Made by a program: the position numbers and the translations under genes. This document shows, piece by piece, positions 13,412 to 57,436 of a stretch of 64,000 nt of DNA. Under the pieces are notes generated by a model. That model was not told the DNA's origin. It ran no database searches and saw nothing but the letters and a program-made list of their open reading frames with translations. This DNA comes from Gemmatimonadota bacterium. GTDB taxonomy: Bacteria > Gemmatimonadota > Gemmatimonadetes > Longimicrobiales > Gaopeijiaceae. Within the stretch, counting starts at the first letter, position 1; the number at the start of each line of letters is the position of its first letter. The DNA lies in assembly GCA_009692105.1 (NCBI GenBank), contig SHZS01000003.1, positions 5,136-69,135 of the forward strand, given 5' to 3'.

Positions 13412-13484
13412 GCCCCCATCGTCTAGTGGCCTAGGACATCTGGTTCTCAGCCAGGAAACCGGGGTTCGATTCCCCGTGGGGGTA
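13412..13484 (+). tRNA. tRNA-Glu (anticodon CUC)
   Basis: Folded by hand: acceptor GCCCCCA/TGGGGGT, anticodon stem TCTGG/CCAGG, loop TTCTCAG, T-arm CGGGG-TTCGATT-CCCCG. CCA is not encoded. Confidence 0.9.
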
Positions 13485-13559
13485 TGCCTTCCCAGGGGCT
13501 CCCGCGCTCGATCTTCGGTTAGTGGGCAGGGGCGTTCGCTGGGAGGGATTCGGAAGGTC

Positions 13560-13632
13560 GGTCGCTTAGCTCAGCTGGTAGAGCACCACGTTCACATCGT
13601 GGGGGTCGCTGGTTCGAGTCCAGCAGCGACCA
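13560..13632 (+). tRNA. tRNA-Val (anticodon CAC)
   Basis: Folded by hand: acceptor GGTCGCT/AGCGACC, D-arm GCTC-AGCTGGTA-GAGC, anticodon stem CCACG/CGTGG, loop TTCACAT, T-arm GCTGG-TTCGAGT-CCAGC. Confidence 0.9.
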
Positions 13633-21944: not shown

Positions 21945-24509
21945 ATGAGCATTACCCAGAAGCGCGAGCGGATCCTTTCCCGCCTGATCGAGGAGGAAAT
22001 GCGCGAGGCGTTCCTCGATTACTCGATGAGCGTGATCGTCCAGCGCGCGCTCCCCGACGTCAGGGATGGACTCAAGCCCGTCCACCGGCGGATCCTCTTC
22101 GCGATGCGGGAGCTGGGGCTCTCGCCCGACCGCCCACACAAGAAGAGCGCCACGGTCGTGGGCGAGGTGCTGGGGAAATACCACCCCCATGGGGACGCCG
22201 CCGTCTACGAGGCGCTCGTCCGCATGGTTCAGGACTTCTCGCTCCGGTATCCGCTGGTGGACGGACAGGGAAACTTCGGGTCCATCGACGGTGACTCCGC
22301 GGCCGCATACCGGTACACGGAAGCGCGCCTCTCACCCGTCTCCCTGGAACTCCTGGCGGACCTCGAGAAGGAGACGGTGGCCTGGTCCCCGAACTTCGAC
22401 GACCGCCTGAAGGAGCCCTCCGTCCTCCCGTCCCGGGTCCCGAACCTGCTCGTGAACGGGTCCTCGGGTATCGCGGTCGGGATGTCCACCAATATCCCGC
22501 CCCACAACCTCCGCGAAGTGTGCGCCGCGCTCCGGCGGCTCATTCGGAAGCCGTCCTGCTCCATCGCGGAACTCATGCGCGACATGCCCGGTCCTGATTT
22601 TCCTACGGGTGGCTTCATCGTGGGAGGCGAGGGGATCCGCGAGATGTACGAGACGGGCCGTGGGCGGATCGTGATGAGAGCTCGCATCGTGAAAGAGGCG
22701 CTCCGAGGAGGGAAGGAGCAGCTGGTCGTCACGGAACTCCCATACGCGCTCTCCAAGGCGCGGGTGATCGAGCAGCTGGTCGAGCTCTCCCGGAAGGGGA
22801 AGATGGACGAAGTAATGGACGTGCGAGACGAATCTGACCGCGATGGGATGCGACTCGTCATCCAGCTGAAGCGCGGTGCCCGCGCGAATGCGACGCTCGA
22901 GATCCTCCATAGGAAAACGAGCCTCCAGACGACGTTCGGGGCGATCCTCCTAGCGCTCGACGGGGGAGTGCCGCGCGAGTTCAACCTGAAGCAACTCCTG
23001 GAGCGCTATCGGGATCACCGCGTCGAGGTCGTAGTTCGACGCTCGCGCCATGACCTCGAGCAGGCGGAGGCCGAGCGGCACGTCCTCGAAGGGCTCCTGC
23101 TCGCACTCGACCACATCGACGAAGTGGTGGGGATCATCCGGAAGTCCCGAGCGCGGCCGCAAGCCTCCGAGAGGCTCCAGAAGCGGTTCGGCCTGTCCGA
23201 TGCGCAGGCGGACGCGATCCTCGACATGCGGCTTGCGAGGCTCACCTCCCTCGAGAGGGAAGGGCTTCAGCGTCGGCAGAAGGAACTCGGGGGAATGATC
23301 GAGGAGCTTCGGGGCATCCTTGCCAGCCCCGAGGCGCAGCTCCGCGTCGTGCTCGCTGAGCTGGACGATGTGAACCGCCGCTTCGGGGACGCTCGCCGCA
23401 CCGCGATCCTCGAGGGCGACGAGGAAGCCCACATCCCGGCTGAGAGCACGGTCGCGGATGAGGACGTCGTGATCACGGTGAGCCACGAGGGATTCGTGAA
23501 GCGCATCCCCGTCCACCTCTATCGCAGAAGGGTCAGCTCGGGAGGTCGGCTCGCCGGGATGGATAACTACGAGAACGATTGGCTCGAACGGGTCTTCACG
23601 GCGCGCACCGGGGGGTGGCTCCTGGCCTGCACCGAAGGAGGGAAGGCCCACTTCCTCTCCGTCCTCGATGTGCCCGAATCCGCTCGTGCATCTAGGGGTC
23701 AGTCCGTCTACGCCCTGGCCGAAGCGGAACGCGAGGATCGCATCGTGGCCTTGGTACCTGTCGAGCAACTGGACGAGGAGGGAAAGGTCCTTCTCTTCGC
23801 CACGAGGAAGGGCACCGTCAAGCGGACGCCCCTCTCCGAGTTCGCGAGCCCCCGGGCGGGCGGGATCATCGCCGCGGGAGTGCGCGAGGGAGACGCGATC
23901 TTGGAGGTCGTGGTCTCGGACGAGCGCGCAGAGGTGCTCCTCTTCTCGAGGGAGGGAAGGGCCATCCGATTCCCAGAGACGGATATTCCCGTAATGGGAA
24001 GAACCGCGCAGGGGGTGAAGGGGATCAGCCTCCGGGACGAAGATGAGGTCGTGGGTGTCATCCTCGTCCGCCGCGATGCGACCGTCCTTTCGTTGAGTGA
24101 CATGGGATGGGGAAAGCGAACCTCTCTCGCTGAGTTCCCGTTGCAGAAGCGAGGCGGGCTGGGCACGATGGCAGTCCCCACCGGAACGGAGACGGGACGG
24201 CTCGTGGCAGCGCTCGAAGTGGTGCCAACCGACGAGATCACGATCGTGACCGCGGCTGGTGTCGTGACGCGAATGTCCGCCTCGAAGATTCCTGAGCAGG
24301 GCCGTCGCACGCGCGGCGTGCGGGTCACGAAGCTCGAGGCCGGGGATCGGGTGGTGGAGGTCGCGAGGAGCGTGGGCGAGGAGGATGGCGCTGGCGTGGG
24401 CGCGGACGAAGAAACCGGCGCCTCCGATGGGCCTCTCGGAGACCAGCTCGGGGACACCGCGGAGGGGGCACCTCAGGGCCAGGCGGAGCTCTTCCGGCCG
24501 GCCGACTAA
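21945..24509 (+). CDS. gyrA: DNA gyrase subunit A
   Basis: 854 aa with [16 protein letters not shown], the catalytic Tyr region [11 protein letters not shown] and a C-terminal beta-pinwheel repeat region. Confidence 0.97.
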
Positions 24510-50632: not shown

Positions 50633-51382
50633 ATGCCAACGATCACCGCCTACTTGATCACACGCAACGCCGAGCGACACCTGGACGAAGTGCTCCGCTC
50701 GGTTGAGGGAGTCGACGATATCCTTGTCGTGGACTCGGGGTCCACGGACGCCACCCTCGAGATCGCACGCCGTCACGGCGCGCGCGTGATCCACCAGGAG
50801 TGGCTCGGGTACGCGCGCCAGAAGGCCTTCGCCCTCCGGAGCTGTCAGGGAGAGTGGGCGCTGAACCTGGACGCGGACGAGGTGCTTCCCCCGGGAGCGC
50901 TGGACGCGATCCGGACCCGCATCTCCCGGGGTGACGTGAATGGCATCTACTTGCTCCACGACGACACCTTCATGGGTCGCCCCATGCCGGGGAAGCGCCT
51001 GCCCTTCCTCCGCGTCTATCGGCATGCGAAGGCCCGTTTCGACGAAAGCATGGAGGTCCACGAGCGGGTGCACGTCGAAGGTCCGCTCGATCGGCTCCCC
51101 ATCCCGGTACGGCATTACGGGTACGATTCAATCCAGGACTACGTGGACAAGCTGAACCGGTATTCGCTCCTCAAGGCCGGACAGCGGGCCCGGGAGGGAA
51201 GGCCGTTCAGTCGGTCGAGACTCCTCCTCACGCTCCCGCTCACCTTCCTCAAGTTCTACCTGCTCCGCCGTATGTGCCTGGCAGGCTGGAGGGGCTTCAT
51301 CAAGGCCGTCGTTGACTCGTACTACTTCTTCCTGACCGAGGCGAAGCTGTACGAGCAGGCTTACCGGGAGCAGCACGAGTAA
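50633..51382 (+). CDS. Family 2 glycosyltransferase
   Basis: ATG 50633 gives MPTITAYLITRNAERHL, followed by VVDSGSTDAT and NLDADE. Confidence 0.8.
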   Translation: MPTITAYLITRNAERHLDEVLRSVEGVDDILVVDSGSTDATLEIARRHGARVIHQEWLGYARQKAFALRSCQGEWALNLDADEVLPPGALDAIRTRISRGDVNGIYLLHDDTFMGRPMPGKRLPFLRVYRHAKARFDESMEVHERVHVEGPLDRLPIPVRHYGYDSIQDYVDKLNRYSLLKAGQRAREGRPFSRSRLLLTLPLTFLKFYLLRRMCLAGWRGFIKAVVDSYYFFLTEAKLYEQAYREQHE

Positions 51383-51396
51383 TTACTTTGTAATTA
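51380..51396. promoter_or_regulatory. Perfect palindrome TAATTAC-TTT-GTAATTA upstream of the MazE-MazF fusion ORF
   Basis: Seen directly. It is a 17-bp AT-rich element in GC-rich DNA, 22 nt upstream of GTG 51418 (AAGGA Shine-Dalgarno at 51409-51413). Candidate AbrB/MazE-type operator. Confidence 0.5.
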
Positions 51397-51417
51397 CCTC
51401 ATGGACGTAAGGATGCC

Positions 51418-51990
51418 GTGGACGCAAAGCTGGTCGCCATCGGAAACTCCCGCGGGATACGCATCCCGAAGGCTCTTCTGGAGCTGGCTGGTCTGGAAGA
51501 CTCAGTCGTACTTGAGGTTACAGAAAATGGTGTCCTTGTGTCTCCAGCGGTATCAGTGCGGGAGGAGTGGGACGCCGCCGCCGCCCGACTCAGCCAGTTG
51601 GACCCACCCCGGATCGCGAACGACCGCGCCCGGACCCACCCAAAGCGGGGAGACATCTTCCGGCTTGAGGCAGGGACTGGCTCTGCAGGGACTGGCTCGG
51701 GAGGAACTGGCTCAGGGCCCGGCTCGGCGTTGGGAGACCCCTACCTGGTGCTCTCGCCGGACGAGCTGAACCGCAACCTGGCCTCGTTCGTCATGGCACC
51801 CCTCCTCCCCTCCCCCTCGGAGAACCTCCCCTTCCGGATCCGGTGTCGGATCGCGGGACAGGATAGAGTCGCAGCCCTGGACCGACTCGAGACGGTGCCC
51901 GAAGCGCGGATCGGCGAGCGACTGGGCTGGCTCCCCGCCCAAGCGCTCACCGACGCGCTTACCACGCTACGGGAGCTGTTCACCGCGTGA
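51418..51990 (+). CDS. Single-chain fusion of a MazE/AbrB (SpoVT) antitoxin domain and a MazF/PemK-like toxin domain
   Basis: The N-terminus KLVAIGNSRGIRIPKALLELAGLEDSVVLEV is an AbrB swapped-hairpin. The C-terminal part has PKRGDIF, YLVLSPDELN, FVMAPL, VAALDRLETV and RIGERLGWLP, matching the MazF/PemK fold. There is no internal stop. Confidence 0.7.
   Translation: MDAKLVAIGNSRGIRIPKALLELAGLEDSVVLEVTENGVLVSPAVSVREEWDAAAARLSQLDPPRIANDRARTHPKRGDIFRLEAGTGSAGTGSGGTGSGPGSALGDPYLVLSPDELNRNLASFVMAPLLPSPSENLPFRIRCRIAGQDRVAALDRLETVPEARIGERLGWLPAQALTDALTTLRELFTA
51670..51726 (+). repeat. 15-bp tandem repeat (about 3.8 units) encoding (A/G)GTGS repeats inside the toxin domain
   Basis: The units are gcagggactggctct / gcagggactggctcg / ggaggaactggctca / gggcccggctcg, read directly from the sequence. 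Confidence 0.85.
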
Positions 51991-53076
51991 GTTCCATGTC
52001 CGACGACTTCTATCCCTCGATCCGGGCCGTTGATAGGTACGAGAGCCTCGCTGTTCGCGAGAGCTACGTCCGGCTCCCCGACGACTGGGCCGTGGTCGCC
52101 GCAGACGTCGTCAACTCGAGCGCCGCCATAGAGGAAGGACGCTACAAGGAGGTAAACACCGTCGGCGTGTCGATCATCGCCGCGACCCGAAACGCCGTGC
52201 GCCCAATCGAGGTGCCCTACCTTTTCGGGGGAGACGGGGCCCTCCTCTGCATTCCCGGATGGACGGCTCCCGCGATCCGGCGCGCGCTCGGCCCAACCGT
52301 CGCCTGGCGAGCGCGGCGTTTCGGCTGGAGCTGATGGCCGCAGTAGTCCCCGTCTCGTACCTCGCCGACCTCGGACACGAGATCCTCGTGGCCCGTCATC
52401 GGGTTTCGAGCCACCACGTGCAGGGCGCCTTCTTCGGAGGGGGCGCGATGCACGTCGAGCGGGCTCTCAAGGCCGGGGAGCTCCCCGAGGAGTTCCTGGT
52501 CCACCCCGATCCCCTGGCCGACGCCGATTACACGGGGCTCGAGTGCCGGTGGAGCGAGATCCCGAGCCCCGGCGAGGAAACCGTCGCATTGATCGTCGAG
52601 GCGAAGGGCGGACGTGAGGAGGCGCTTCCCACGTGCTACGGAACGAGGGACGGCTTCGCGGCTGGCGGGCCGGCCCCCTTTCGCGCCTGGGGGGCTCGGT
52701 CGTGCTCCGTTTCAAGGTGCTTCCGGGTTGGTTCCTCCTCCGCTTCCGCATCCGTACTTCCGAGATGGATTGGGGGAGGTACAAGAGCGACCTCATCACC
52801 AACACCGACTACCGGAAGTTCGACGGCACAATGCGGCTCGTGCTCGCAGGATCGTCGGAGCAGCGCAGGCGGCTCGAGGCCCAGCCGGCTCAGATGCAGG
52901 AGACGGGCGCGCTCTCCTACGGGGTCCATGTGGCCTCGTCCGCCATCATGACCTGTCTGATCGAGAAGCGGCAGGGTGCGCACTTCCACTTCGTGGATGC
53001 AGCGGACGGCGGGTATGCCGCCGCGGCACGGAAGCTCAAGGCGGGACCCCCGTGGGAGGAGCCGAAGGTGAGGTGA
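51987..53076 (+). pseudogene. DUF3095-like gene disrupted by two frameshifts
   Basis: Homology-like sequence continues across three frames: 51987..52334 (...LFGGDGALLCIP...), 52259..about 52650 (...VVPVSYLADLGHEILVARH...FFGGGAMHVERALKAGE...CRWSEIP...) and 52633..53076 (...NTDYRKFDGTMRLVLAG...HFHFVDAADGGYAAAARKLKA). Confidence 0.65.
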
Positions 53077-53205
53077 ATATCGAGCCCGGCTGCAGGCCCT
53101 CGTCTCCTCGCACCGTCCTTCACGCCGCGCTATGTTTGGAGAAACGCCCCCCGAGGAGCATGATGAGGCGCCTCCCGGAAGGCGAACCCACGATCCGGGA
53201 GCCCG

Positions 53206-53652
53206 ATGGCGCGTGAGGAGGCGGGAGGTCGCAGCCTGGCGGAGAGGGCCCACGACTTGTACTGGAATTCCGACCGGGGCGTGAACGCGATCGCGGATGA
53301 CCTCGGGCTCTCGAAGGGCGGGCTGTACGAGCTCGTCCAGCCCCTCTCCTCAGAGAAGCCCTGCGCCGAATGCGGCACGGAGATGGTCTTCGCGACGCGC
53401 ACCGCGAGGGAACGCGGCTGGTCCACCTGTCCGTTCTGCGGCGCCGGCGAAGAAGAGGAAGACCCAGAGGAGGAGAAGGGGCGGCCTCCTCCGGCAGTCC
53501 GAATCCCCGAGGGCCCCTTCGCCGGAACGAGCTCCCGCCCCCTGACCGGAACGAGTTCCCGCCCTCTGAGTGGAGACCGTGCCCGGATCCTGGGCGGGGT
53601 CCTGATTGGGGTGGCCGGCGTGATCCTTCTCTTCAGGCACCTTCGTCGGTGA
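53206..53652 (+). CDS. Hypothetical HTH-like / zinc-ribbon / C-terminal TM protein
   Basis: 148 aa with CAECG...CPFCG (four-Cys ribbon), an acidic stretch, the tandem GTSSRPL(T/S)G repeat and a C-terminal TM segment (ILGGVLIGVAGVILLF). Confidence 0.55.
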   Translation: MAREEAGGRSLAERAHDLYWNSDRGVNAIADDLGLSKGGLYELVQPLSSEKPCAECGTEMVFATRTARERGWSTCPFCGAGEEEEDPEEEKGRPPPAVRIPEGPFAGTSSRPLTGTSSRPLSGDRARILGGVLIGVAGVILLFRHLRR

Positions 53653-53800
53653 CGGACACGCTCGACCCCAAGCGGACTCGAGCCGTATATCGAGCTCAAG
53701 GCCTTCCTCGAGGGAGATAACGAGAAGCATCTTTTTCGCGAGTTTCAGCTCTGACCTGAAGTACGACAGAATCAAGAACGACAGACCACACGGAGCACCC

Positions 53801-54562
53801 CTGACCTTCTCGATCCTTCCGCCGGCCGCCCTCCGGGCCGCAAGTGCTGCGACGCTCTTTCTCCTCCTGTCCGCGGCGGGATGCGGGGGAGAGGACGACG
53901 AGCTCGAGGCCGCGGCCGAGGAGATCCCTGCGGCGAGCACGCAGCCCGTTCTTTCCGAACAGGGCCTCCAACAGTTCGACCTCTCGGCGATCGGTTATAA
54001 CGAGGGAACCGAAGAGACTGCCGCATTCGGGGTCATCGAGTTCGCCGACTTCGGATGCATCCATTGCTTCGACTTCCACGAGAGCACCTATCCGGCCCTC
54101 CACACGGAGTTCATCGCTTCGGGGGACCTGCTCTGGAAGTACATCCCCGTCACCCTGGCCGGCTTCCCAAACGGAGACCTGGCCGCAGTCTCTGCGATGT
54201 GCGCGGCCGGGAGCGACAAGTTCGGGCCCATGCGCGACTACCTCTTCGGCAAGCGGGAGGAGTGGCTCGTAAGCACACGGGCGGAGGCGCTCTTCGTCGA
54301 GTACGCGGCAGCCGTCGGCCTGAACGCCGCACAGTTCCGTGCGTGCCTCACGGGGCCCGATACCCACGCGAAGCTCGAGGAGAACAACAGGATCGCGCGG
54401 CAGATCGGCGTGACCGGCACCCCCACCTTCATCGTGGCGGGAACCCCCGTCGAGGGCGCGCCTCCGCTCGAGAGCTTCCAGACCGCGCTGAGGCAGATGA
54501 TCGCAGCATCGCGGTCCGCGGCGCAGGCGTCTCCCACGCCCCCCGCGCGCCCGGGTCCCTAG
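53801..54562 (+). CDS. DsbA-family thioredoxin-fold lipoprotein lacking a canonical start (candidate CTG start)
   Basis: My own translation of the frame open from 53624 gives ...LTFSILPPAALRAASAATLFLLLSAAGCGGEDD...FADFGCIHCFDFH...GVTGTPTFIV. The first ATG/GTG/TTG is at 54197, downstream of both the CxxC and the signal peptide. GGAG at 53792-53795 lies 5 nt before CTG 53801. Confidence 0.6.
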   Translation: MTFSILPPAALRAASAATLFLLLSAAGCGGEDDELEAAAEEIPAASTQPVLSEQGLQQFDLSAIGYNEGTEETAAFGVIEFADFGCIHCFDFHESTYPALHTEFIASGDLLWKYIPVTLAGFPNGDLAAVSAMCAAGSDKFGPMRDYLFGKREEWLVSTRAEALFVEYAAAVGLNAAQFRACLTGPDTHAKLEENNRIARQIGVTGTPTFIVAGTPVEGAPPLESFQTALRQMIAASRSAAQASPTPPARPGP

Positions 54563-57363: not shown

Positions 57364-57436
57364 TCCCGTGTAGCTCAGTTGGTAGAGCAGCTGACTGTTA
57401 ATCAGCGGGTCGCAGGTTCGAGTCCTGCCGCGGGAG
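57364..57436 (+). tRNA. tRNA-Asn (anticodon GUU)
   Basis: Folded by hand: acceptor TCCCGTG/CGCGGGA, D-arm GCTC-AGTTGGTA-GAGC, anticodon stem GCTGA/TCAGC, loop CTGTTAA, T-arm GCAGG-TTCGAGT-CCTGC. Confidence 0.9.

Follow-up and report, generated by a model that had tools for sequence, protein, structure and literature searches.

A natural MazE-MazF fusion in a Gemmatimonadota chromosome, probably a disarmed toxin-antitoxin relic

Natural toxin-antitoxin proteins in which both partners share a single chain are established for EzeT, Phd-RelE, a HicAB fusion, CapRel and fused MNT-HEPN, and some of these (EzeT, CapRel and MNT-HEPN) have altered the view of how toxins are activated. MazEF is the best-studied type II family. 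In the literature that we searched, however, there is no report of a natural MazE-MazF fusion, only of engineered, protease-activated ones, and two large comparative surveys leave natural MazE-MazF fusions unmentioned. Here we describe such a protein, encoded by one open reading frame (ORF) within 64,000 nucleotides of a Gemmatimonadota bacterium genome (GenBank assembly GCA_009692105.1, contig SHZS01000003.1, positions 5,136 to 69,135 of the forward strand). We call this whole stretch the window and give all coordinates as window positions. Natural MazE-MazF fusions do occur, and the one encoded here is most likely disarmed.

Several described systems bear on how such a protein should be read. 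The Phd-RelE fusion of Ralstonia eutropha carries truncations that are thought to leave its toxin without enzymatic activity and its antitoxin unable to inhibit (PMC4826407, citing Loris and Garcia-Pino 2014), and whether that fusion is an evolutionary dead end was left open (PMC4826407). Slr1999 of Synechocystis 6803 is a one-off HicA-HicB fusion with no fused homologue detectable elsewhere (PMC4963859). The engineered MazE-MazF zymogens are activated by the hepatitis C virus (HCV) NS3 protease or the SARS-CoV-2 main protease, Mpro (PMC3281143, PMC8609969).

The coding features of the Gemmatimonadota locus are the following.

51418-51990, + strand: fused MazE-MazF-like ORF of 190 amino acids, with a GTG start and a TGA stop
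51439-51555, + strand: AbrB/SpoVT-type MazE DNA-binding domain, residues 8-46 (Pfam PF04014)
51559-51600, + strand: MazE helix R48-L61 (R-x-x-W-D/E-A-A...; REEWDAAAARLSQL), conserved in separate MazE relatives and present as helix 51-60 in the structural model
51613-51639, + strand: junction segment I66-H74 (IANDRARTH), without counterpart in relatives
51646-51987, + strand: MazF/PemK-fold domain, R77-A190 (Pfam, AlphaFold2 model and Foldseek)

An earlier interpretation of this locus, made from the letters alone (the sequence-only reading), had claimed an uninterrupted 190-codon ORF joining an AbrB-type antitoxin to a MazF fold, and the ORF, with the peptide segments quoted from it, is present at these coordinates in the ORF list. 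No stop separates the two domains, which share one reading frame; no frameshift or premature stop was found within the ORF, and the only candidate lesion is a 17-nucleotide duplicate at its 5' end. No plausible internal start with a ribosome-binding site was found. The TGA of the ORF shares bases with the GTG of the next ORF in a GTGA overlap.

Profile and fold searches confirm the two-domain assignment. With the whole protein, Pfam recognized MazE_antitoxin (PF04014) at residues 8-46 with 27.5 bits, against a cut-off of 24.7, and PemK_toxin (PF02452) at residues 108-188 with 40.5 bits, against a cut-off of 23.1. When the halves were searched separately, both again lay above the Pfam cut-offs, with scores equal to or above those of the whole protein (30.2 bits for PF04014 in the N half alone). 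NCBIfam returned only weak antitoxin-type matches for the N half. An AlphaFold2 monomer model, built from a 51-sequence alignment, had a mean predicted local distance difference test score (pLDDT) of 82 and consisted of AbrB-type strands, a helix at residues 51-60, disorder at 64-70 and a beta-rich C-terminal domain with a final long helix. The top Foldseek matches of this model in the PDB were exclusively MazF proteins (6a6x_B, 4mzm, 4mdx and 5ck9; probability 1.00; target-normalised template modelling (TM) scores of 0.72-0.85), comprising M. tuberculosis MazF-mt9 and the S. aureus, B. subtilis and E. coli MazF proteins. A sequence search of the PDB with the C half gave nothing significant (the best match was MazF3, E = 1), and its low-complexity loop drew spurious matches; the fold of the C half is therefore settled by the profile search and the fold search. 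A chromosomal Gemmatimonadota locus thus truly encodes the MazE and MazF folds in one protein.

We looked for relatives of the fused protein at two levels. A word-index search of 5.8 billion protein clusters contained no relative with more than 50% identity to it, and the full protein retrieved only itself and four distant MazE proteins. We scanned a one-genome-per-species collection and the JGI metagenomes and obtained 87 related loci, 80 of them with both domains. All 80 encode the domains as two genes in two frames and none is fused; stop and start overlap by 4 or 7 nucleotides in 75. Their hosts are mainly Acidobacteriota (Pyrinomonadaceae, Blastocatellia) and Armatimonadota. Nor was a fusion present among 11 plasmid matches. 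According to the sequence-only reading, close relatives with a stop codon separating two genes at this position would imply a local lesion or an error, and two genes are what all 80 carry, although these relatives are only 30-50% identical to the fused protein.

Comparison with the two-gene loci located what is missing at the junction. In separate MazE proteins, R48-L61 forms the helix behind the AbrB barrel and belongs to the antitoxin, not to a linker. The linker of about 30 residues that had been proposed from the sequence therefore shrinks: its first ~14 residues are this conserved helix, and only approximately I66-H74 remains as a junction without counterpart. That segment stands in place of the F-x-x-E-W-x-W end of the antitoxin, the antitoxin stop and the toxin start codon. 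A W-x-W sequence (KEWQW, EEWEW and similar) terminates 79 of 80 separate MazE relatives, and no such end occurs in any reading frame of the fused locus. In the two-gene relatives, the conserved Trp of the R-x-x-W helix is followed by 28-35 residues of MazE, and the R-F/G-D-V of beta1 is preceded by 2-4 residues of the toxin, giving an expected spacing of ~33-39 residues; in the fused protein, Trp51 and Arg77 (beta1) are separated by 25. The nearest separate relatives are uninformative on the junction, since the MazE-like P0012 adjoins a PIN fragment and the MazF-like P0008 is a 5'-truncated remnant on a low-coverage contig of 744 bp (P and L numbers are our handles for proteins and for contigs or loci, respectively).

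The fusion appears to have arisen by deletion of ~8-14 codons across the gene junction. The short spacer and the lack of a W-x-W in any frame argue for a deletion and not for a point mutation of the stop codon or a simple frameshift. Of the explanations that the sequence-only reading had offered, a decayed module whose intergenic stop was lost thus comes closest to the evidence, except that the lesion would be this deletion and not a simple stop loss. Frameshift read-through was considered as the origin of the fusion and ruled out: the antitoxin end and the toxin start are unrecoverable in any frame, and the fraction of G or C at third codon positions (GC3) is normal at the junction. Within the ORF, GC3 is 0.55 in the AbrB part, 0.90 in codons 48-77 and 0.86 in the MazF core.

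We also asked whether an indel introduced during sequencing or assembly could have merged two real genes. The gene downstream is itself out of frame twice, as might be expected of indel-prone sequence. Against this, the Logan assembly of run SRR8561390, the product of another assembler, contains a contig (L007, 2787 bp) that is 100% identical to window positions 51321-54107, which makes an assembler artefact unlikely, although the same reads may underlie both assemblies. No W-x-W end, stop or toxin start can be recovered in any frame, and the third positions of the nine junction codons are all G or C. We consider an artefact very improbable.

Having defined the junction, we compared the catalytic site, aligning the C half to separate MazF relatives and to E. 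coli and B. subtilis MazF. The reference sequences of the latter two are those that we take to be the standard ones; their numbering reproduced R29/T52 and R25/T48, respectively. The features concerned are the following.

51669-51713, + strand: 15-nucleotide tandem repeat in the beta1-beta2 loop (period 15, 3.0 copies, 86% matches)
51736-51738, + strand: Asp107 codon at the catalytic Arg position by alignment (E. coli MazF R29, B. subtilis R25)
51805-51807, + strand: Leu130 codon at the catalytic Thr position by alignment (E. coli T52, B. subtilis T48)

Arg occupies the first catalytic column in 78 of 78 two-gene relatives, and the fused protein has Asp107 there. At the Thr column, the two-gene relatives have Thr (33), Ser (25) or Ala (20), the Ala type with an adjacent Ser or Thr (A-S-T or A-S-S) in the examples checked; in the fused protein the residue is Leu130, within A-P-L-L-P. 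For B. subtilis MazF, Arg25 and Thr48 are reported to be essential and conserved in many homologues, and the R29A and T52A mutants of MazF-sth lost most of their activity (PMC10893535). The beta1-beta2 loop, usually L-D-P-x-x-G-x-E-x-x-K-x-R-P in this subfamily, instead reads A-G-T-G-S-A-G-T-G-S-G-G-T-G-S-G-P-G-S-A-L-G-D-P. The threefold repeat encodes part of this Gly/Thr/Ser-rich segment (A85-G106), which has low pLDDT and no secondary structure in the AlphaFold2 model. Toxin RNase activity, and with it toxicity, would be expected to be lost.

These substitutions bear directly on the possibility, raised in the sequence-only reading, of a cis-inhibited toxin released by proteolysis or another trigger. 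On that account, the MazE part would mask the MazF groove until a protease or trigger freed it, as in EzeT, CapRel and the engineered MazE-MazF zymogens. In favour of this account, the protein has both folds and retains the MazE helix R48-L61; engineered MazE-linker-MazF fusions are harmless until cleaved, so the design is feasible; and another natural lineage (P0056/P0174, below) keeps Arg and Thr under purifying selection. In the window protein, however, Asp replaces the Arg that is invariant in relatives and essential in tested MazFs, Leu replaces the Thr, a low-complexity repeat forms the substrate loop, the W-x-W end through which the antitoxin mainly binds the toxin is missing, and PADLOC has no defence-system model for it. 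With the RNase site lost, there would be no toxin left to release, and we regard an active, cis-inhibited toxin as improbable.

The region upstream of the ORF contains two further features.

51379-51397, no strand assigned: twin 8-nucleotide palindromes, GTAATTAC-ttt-GTAATTAC, 11 nucleotides from start to start, a likely operator for the AbrB/MazE domain
51401-51417, + strand: 17-nucleotide imperfect duplicate of the start region (ATGGACGTAAGGATGCC versus GTGGACGCAAAGCTGGT, 11 of 17 identical), the two copies spanning 51401-51434

The first palindrome shares bases with the TAA stop of the GT2 glycosyltransferase gene upstream. In the 64 kb, GTAATTAC occurs at these two sites only, where 0.02 would be expected, and none of 100 shuffles contained two. 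Among 78 two-gene relatives, 54 carry the exact octamer ahead of mazE; 34 of the 78 have two sites, and in all 34 the spacing is 11 nucleotides. The putative mazEF family operator is thus retained at the fused locus, and it would presumably be bound by the AbrB domain of the fused protein.

In the relatives, the second operator site usually abuts the mazE ATG. Their design (seen upstream of mazE in L013-L099 and at positions 691-709 of L001) is a TTGACA-like -35 box followed by TGTAATTAC-N3-TGTAATT abutting the ATG. This leaves no room for a Shine-Dalgarno sequence between operator and ATG, which suggests that the mazEF transcripts of the relatives are leaderless. Their promoter pattern is a TTGACA -35 and a TAC-x-AT -10; the counterparts in the window are weak by eye, and a scan of 51100-52200 for sigma-70 promoters and terminators found nothing. 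At the fused locus the distance from operator to coding sequence is 22 nucleotides longer than in the relatives, and the added sequence includes the 17-nucleotide duplicate. An ATG at 51401 sits at the position of the relatives' start codon but is out of frame and opens a 122-codon ORF, while an AAGGA Shine-Dalgarno-like box at 51409-51413 precedes the in-frame GTG at 51418. Ribosomes may begin at the GTG, or the ATG may divert them out of frame.

We next consider whether the fusion is a lineage trait. An exhaustive HMMER search of 1.84 billion representative proteins surfaced about ten further MazE-MazF fusions, mostly unrelated to one another and some truncated. Those without the Arg, the Thr and the L-D-P-x-x-G-x-E loop motif are P0006 (174 amino acids), P0007 (184), P0009 and P0155 (185) and P0019 (169); those that keep all three are P0056 and P0174 (217) and P0079 (148). 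The nearest relatives of each half of the window protein are ordinary separate proteins: separate antitoxins of 81-109 amino acids for the N half, and, among the nearest relatives, P0016 and P0043 in two-gene modules with overlapping stop and start. The other fusions rank 55th-221st among relatives of the N half and 114th-165th among those of the C half, which makes descent from a fused ancestor unlikely. It is best read as an independent, lineage-specific event. The question of whether the fusion is conserved or unique, which the sequence-only reading had posed, thus has a divided answer: there is no orthologous fusion, and other fusions exist that are not the nearest relatives of either half. 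A neighbour-joining tree of MazF domains grouped the window domain with P0016, P0017 and P0043, and also with the other fusions that lack the catalytic residues; a fused-only clade had 0 of 100 bootstrap support, so the tree carries no inference on single versus multiple origin. P0006, which is 41% identical over its full length and has the twin GTAATTAC upstream, was considered as an orthologue that would prove an old, conserved fusion. It was dropped, the operator being family-wide and P0006 ranking 55th and 125th by half.

Two lineages among the other fusions show purifying selection. P0009 and P0155 differ at 80% of synonymous sites (pS 0.80, saturated) and 13% of nonsynonymous sites (pN 0.13) with no indels, and their junction is among their best-conserved parts; P0009 is present on six contigs from several samples. 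In P0009, P0155 and P0007 (L003 530-1087, L008 2011-2568 and L002 2049-2603, respectively) the junction W-D-G/P-x-C-R-E-M-P-V-K/R-R-F-E-V is conserved, and the three look like a conserved "dead-toxin" fusion family. P0056 and P0174 (L106 1194-1847 and L102 3001-3654) are 76% identical, with a pN/pS of 0.23, and have the Trp-rich antitoxin tail, a basic linker of ~25 amino acids and both the catalytic Arg and Thr. P0174 occurs on 13 contigs, and in L106 an integrase and IS91-type transposases adjoin the fusion gene. With pN far below pS, both pairs are under purifying selection. PADLOC has no defence-system model for P0174 or P0009. As leads for a survey, P0056/P0174 are candidates for a natural cis-inhibited MazF, better ones than the window protein, and P0009/P0155 are candidates for a pseudo-toxin regulator; both are more promising than the window protein.

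Some related proteins show other kinds of change. P0016 (L010 584-1178) and P0017 (L012 61-393) are unfused MazF-like proteins without the catalytic Arg; P0016 belongs to a module of two genes that overlap at ATGA, and the MazE encoded with it is likewise without a W-x-W end. These two may represent a co-degenerating or a functionally different subgroup. P0010, P0011, P0079 and P0008 (L101) look like internal deletions that join a partial AbrB domain to mid-MazF, or like 5'-truncated MazF. Judged from such sequences, deletion is evidently a fairly frequent route of decay for the mazEF loci of this family.

Taking these results together, we favour the view that the locus is a disarmed, fused and lineage-specific mazEF relic, and at most an autorepressor; this is the probable explanation. 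The ancestor would have been a mazEF addiction module of the usual two-gene type on a Gemmatimonadota chromosome. A junction deletion of the size estimated above would have taken the Trp-x-Trp toxin-binding end, the antitoxin stop and the toxin start, leaving both genes in a single reading frame. In the MazF half, the fold would have been kept but the RNase site lost, Asp replacing Arg and Leu replacing Thr, and a Gly/Thr/Ser stretch generated by slippage would have taken the place of the beta1-beta2 loop. We infer the order of these events. MazF and AbrB domains each act as dimers. If the protein is made, its AbrB domain would bind the twin GTAATTAC operator and repress its own transcription, with the MazF-like domain serving as a dimerising appendage only; simple autorepression is what the retained AbrB domain and operator predict.

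The argument for a relic is that each partner has lost something essential, the toxin its catalytic Arg and Thr and the antitoxin its W-x-W tail. Signs of local decay accompany these losses, in that the neighbouring DUF3095 gene is broken and the 17-nucleotide duplication sets the ATG at the ancestral position out of frame. If this is correct, the locus is an example of an addiction module neutralised without deletion of the module: its junction was deleted and its catalytic loop replaced, and its operator was kept.

Several observations weigh against a relic. The ORF is intact, and GC3 in the linker and the MazF core (0.90 and 0.86) is host-like, although the intactness of the ORF is a weak argument either way because long ORFs persist by chance at 65-70% G+C. 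The locus also has its operator and an AAGGA-GTG start that could be used. Of the 40 columns that are strongly conserved in the family, the protein keeps 22, among them the complete eight-residue motif S-P-D-E-L-N-R-N, so that the losses look focused on the active-site loop, unlike the even spread expected of simple neutral decay. Some two-gene relatives (P0016 and P0017) likewise have no catalytic Arg, and its absence may mark a subgroup with another activity instead of inactivity. Finally, P0009/P0155, a fusion with a similar catalytic loss, is clearly under purifying selection, which indicates that a "dead-toxin fusion" can be a working protein.

These same observations raise the possibility that the window protein is a working, non-toxic regulator in which a MazF fold without its RNase site has been domesticated as a dimerisation or co-repressor module (possibly RNA- or ligand-binding) of an AbrB-type repressor. 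A permanent tether of this kind would make operator binding independent of the toxin:antitoxin ratio. The selection on the 185-residue P0009/P0155 fusions, which lack both Arg and Thr, is consistent with such a role, as are the retention of the structural core and the alpha1 motif SPDELNRN while the catalytic loop was remodelled, the retained twin operator and the host-like GC3. The window protein, however, is a singleton without relatives that exceed 50% identity, leaving selection on it unmeasurable, and it has no specific relationship to the fused lineage that is conserved. Moreover, its antitoxin tail is deleted, its loop holds a repeat, its 5' end is rearranged, its neighbour is a pseudogene and no target is evident beyond its own promoter. 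We therefore think it rather unlikely that this protein is a working regulator of that kind. Equally tentative is a broader proposal, that the window protein belongs to a scattered, undescribed class of pseudo-toxin transcription factors in which a MazF fold without an RNase site is tethered to an AbrB repressor; P0009/P0155 would be its clearest members, and P0056/P0174 would be separate, a true natural cis-regulated MazF.

The surroundings of the fused ORF are those of a core chromosomal region, with gyrA (21945-24509), ligA and speA in the window; the named relatives of its GyrA are from Gemmatimonadota, and the best overall match is 79% identical. The window also encodes three tRNAs.

13412-13632 and 57364-57436: tRNA-Glu(CTC), tRNA-Val(CAC) and tRNA-Asn(GTT)

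Lipopolysaccharide (LPS)-type glycosyltransferase genes of families GT9 and GT2 lie upstream of the fused ORF, and no mobile-element genes were seen adjoining it. The G+C content dips to 0.585-0.60 at 51200-51600, compared with 0.66-0.70 around it; the dip runs from the 3' end of the glycosyltransferase gene upstream through the operator and the sequence that codes for the AbrB part. Directly downstream is the DUF3095 gene (51987-53076, + strand), whose GTG overlaps the TGA of the fusion. It is split over three frames, matching Pfam profile positions 1-106, 98-200 and 266-378 with ~65 positions missing, and the broken gene is identical in the Logan contig L007. The DUF3095 gene is a pseudogene. 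Further downstream (53206-53652, + strand) is a small zinc-ribbon-like ORF with a C-terminal direct peptide repeat (GTSSRPLTGTSSRPLSG), for which Pfam matches were weak and below the cut-offs.

Compared with known systems, the fused locus is closest in fold and order to canonical type II MazEF with an AbrB-type antitoxin, as in E. coli MazEF and the 80 two-gene loci from Acidobacteriota, Armatimonadota and others. With those 80 loci it also has in common the R-x-x-W-D/E-A-A helix, the S-P-D-E-L-N-R-N motif and the twin GTAATTAC operator. Unlike canonical MazEF, it is one ORF, with no W-x-W end, no catalytic Arg or Thr, a repeat in its loop and an operator 22 nucleotides further from the start. 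Among natural fusions, P0007/P0009/P0155, P0006 and P0019 resemble the window protein in domain order and in the loss of the Arg, the Thr and the loop motif, whereas P0056/P0174 and P0079 have the same domain order but an intact Arg and Thr. The engineered MazE-linker-MazF zymogens join the same proteins in the same order; they are man-made, however, and their toxin is intact and their linker contains a protease site.

EzeT of E. coli (an epsilon/zeta fusion) and CapRel (a fused toxSAS) are, like the window protein, one-chain combinations of antitoxin and toxin thought to have been fused from a bicistronic operon. Their toxin domains are catalytically competent and regulated in cis, whereas the window protein has no catalytic residues, and its fusion is not conserved among its relatives. 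Slr1999 is, like the window protein, a lone fusion, although the families differ. The families also differ in the Phd-RelE fusion of R. eutropha, where RelE is joined to Phd and not MazF to an AbrB-type antitoxin, but this is the closest precedent in kind. By this comparison, the window protein would find its closest precedent in the inactive-looking Phd-RelE fusion, not in EzeT.

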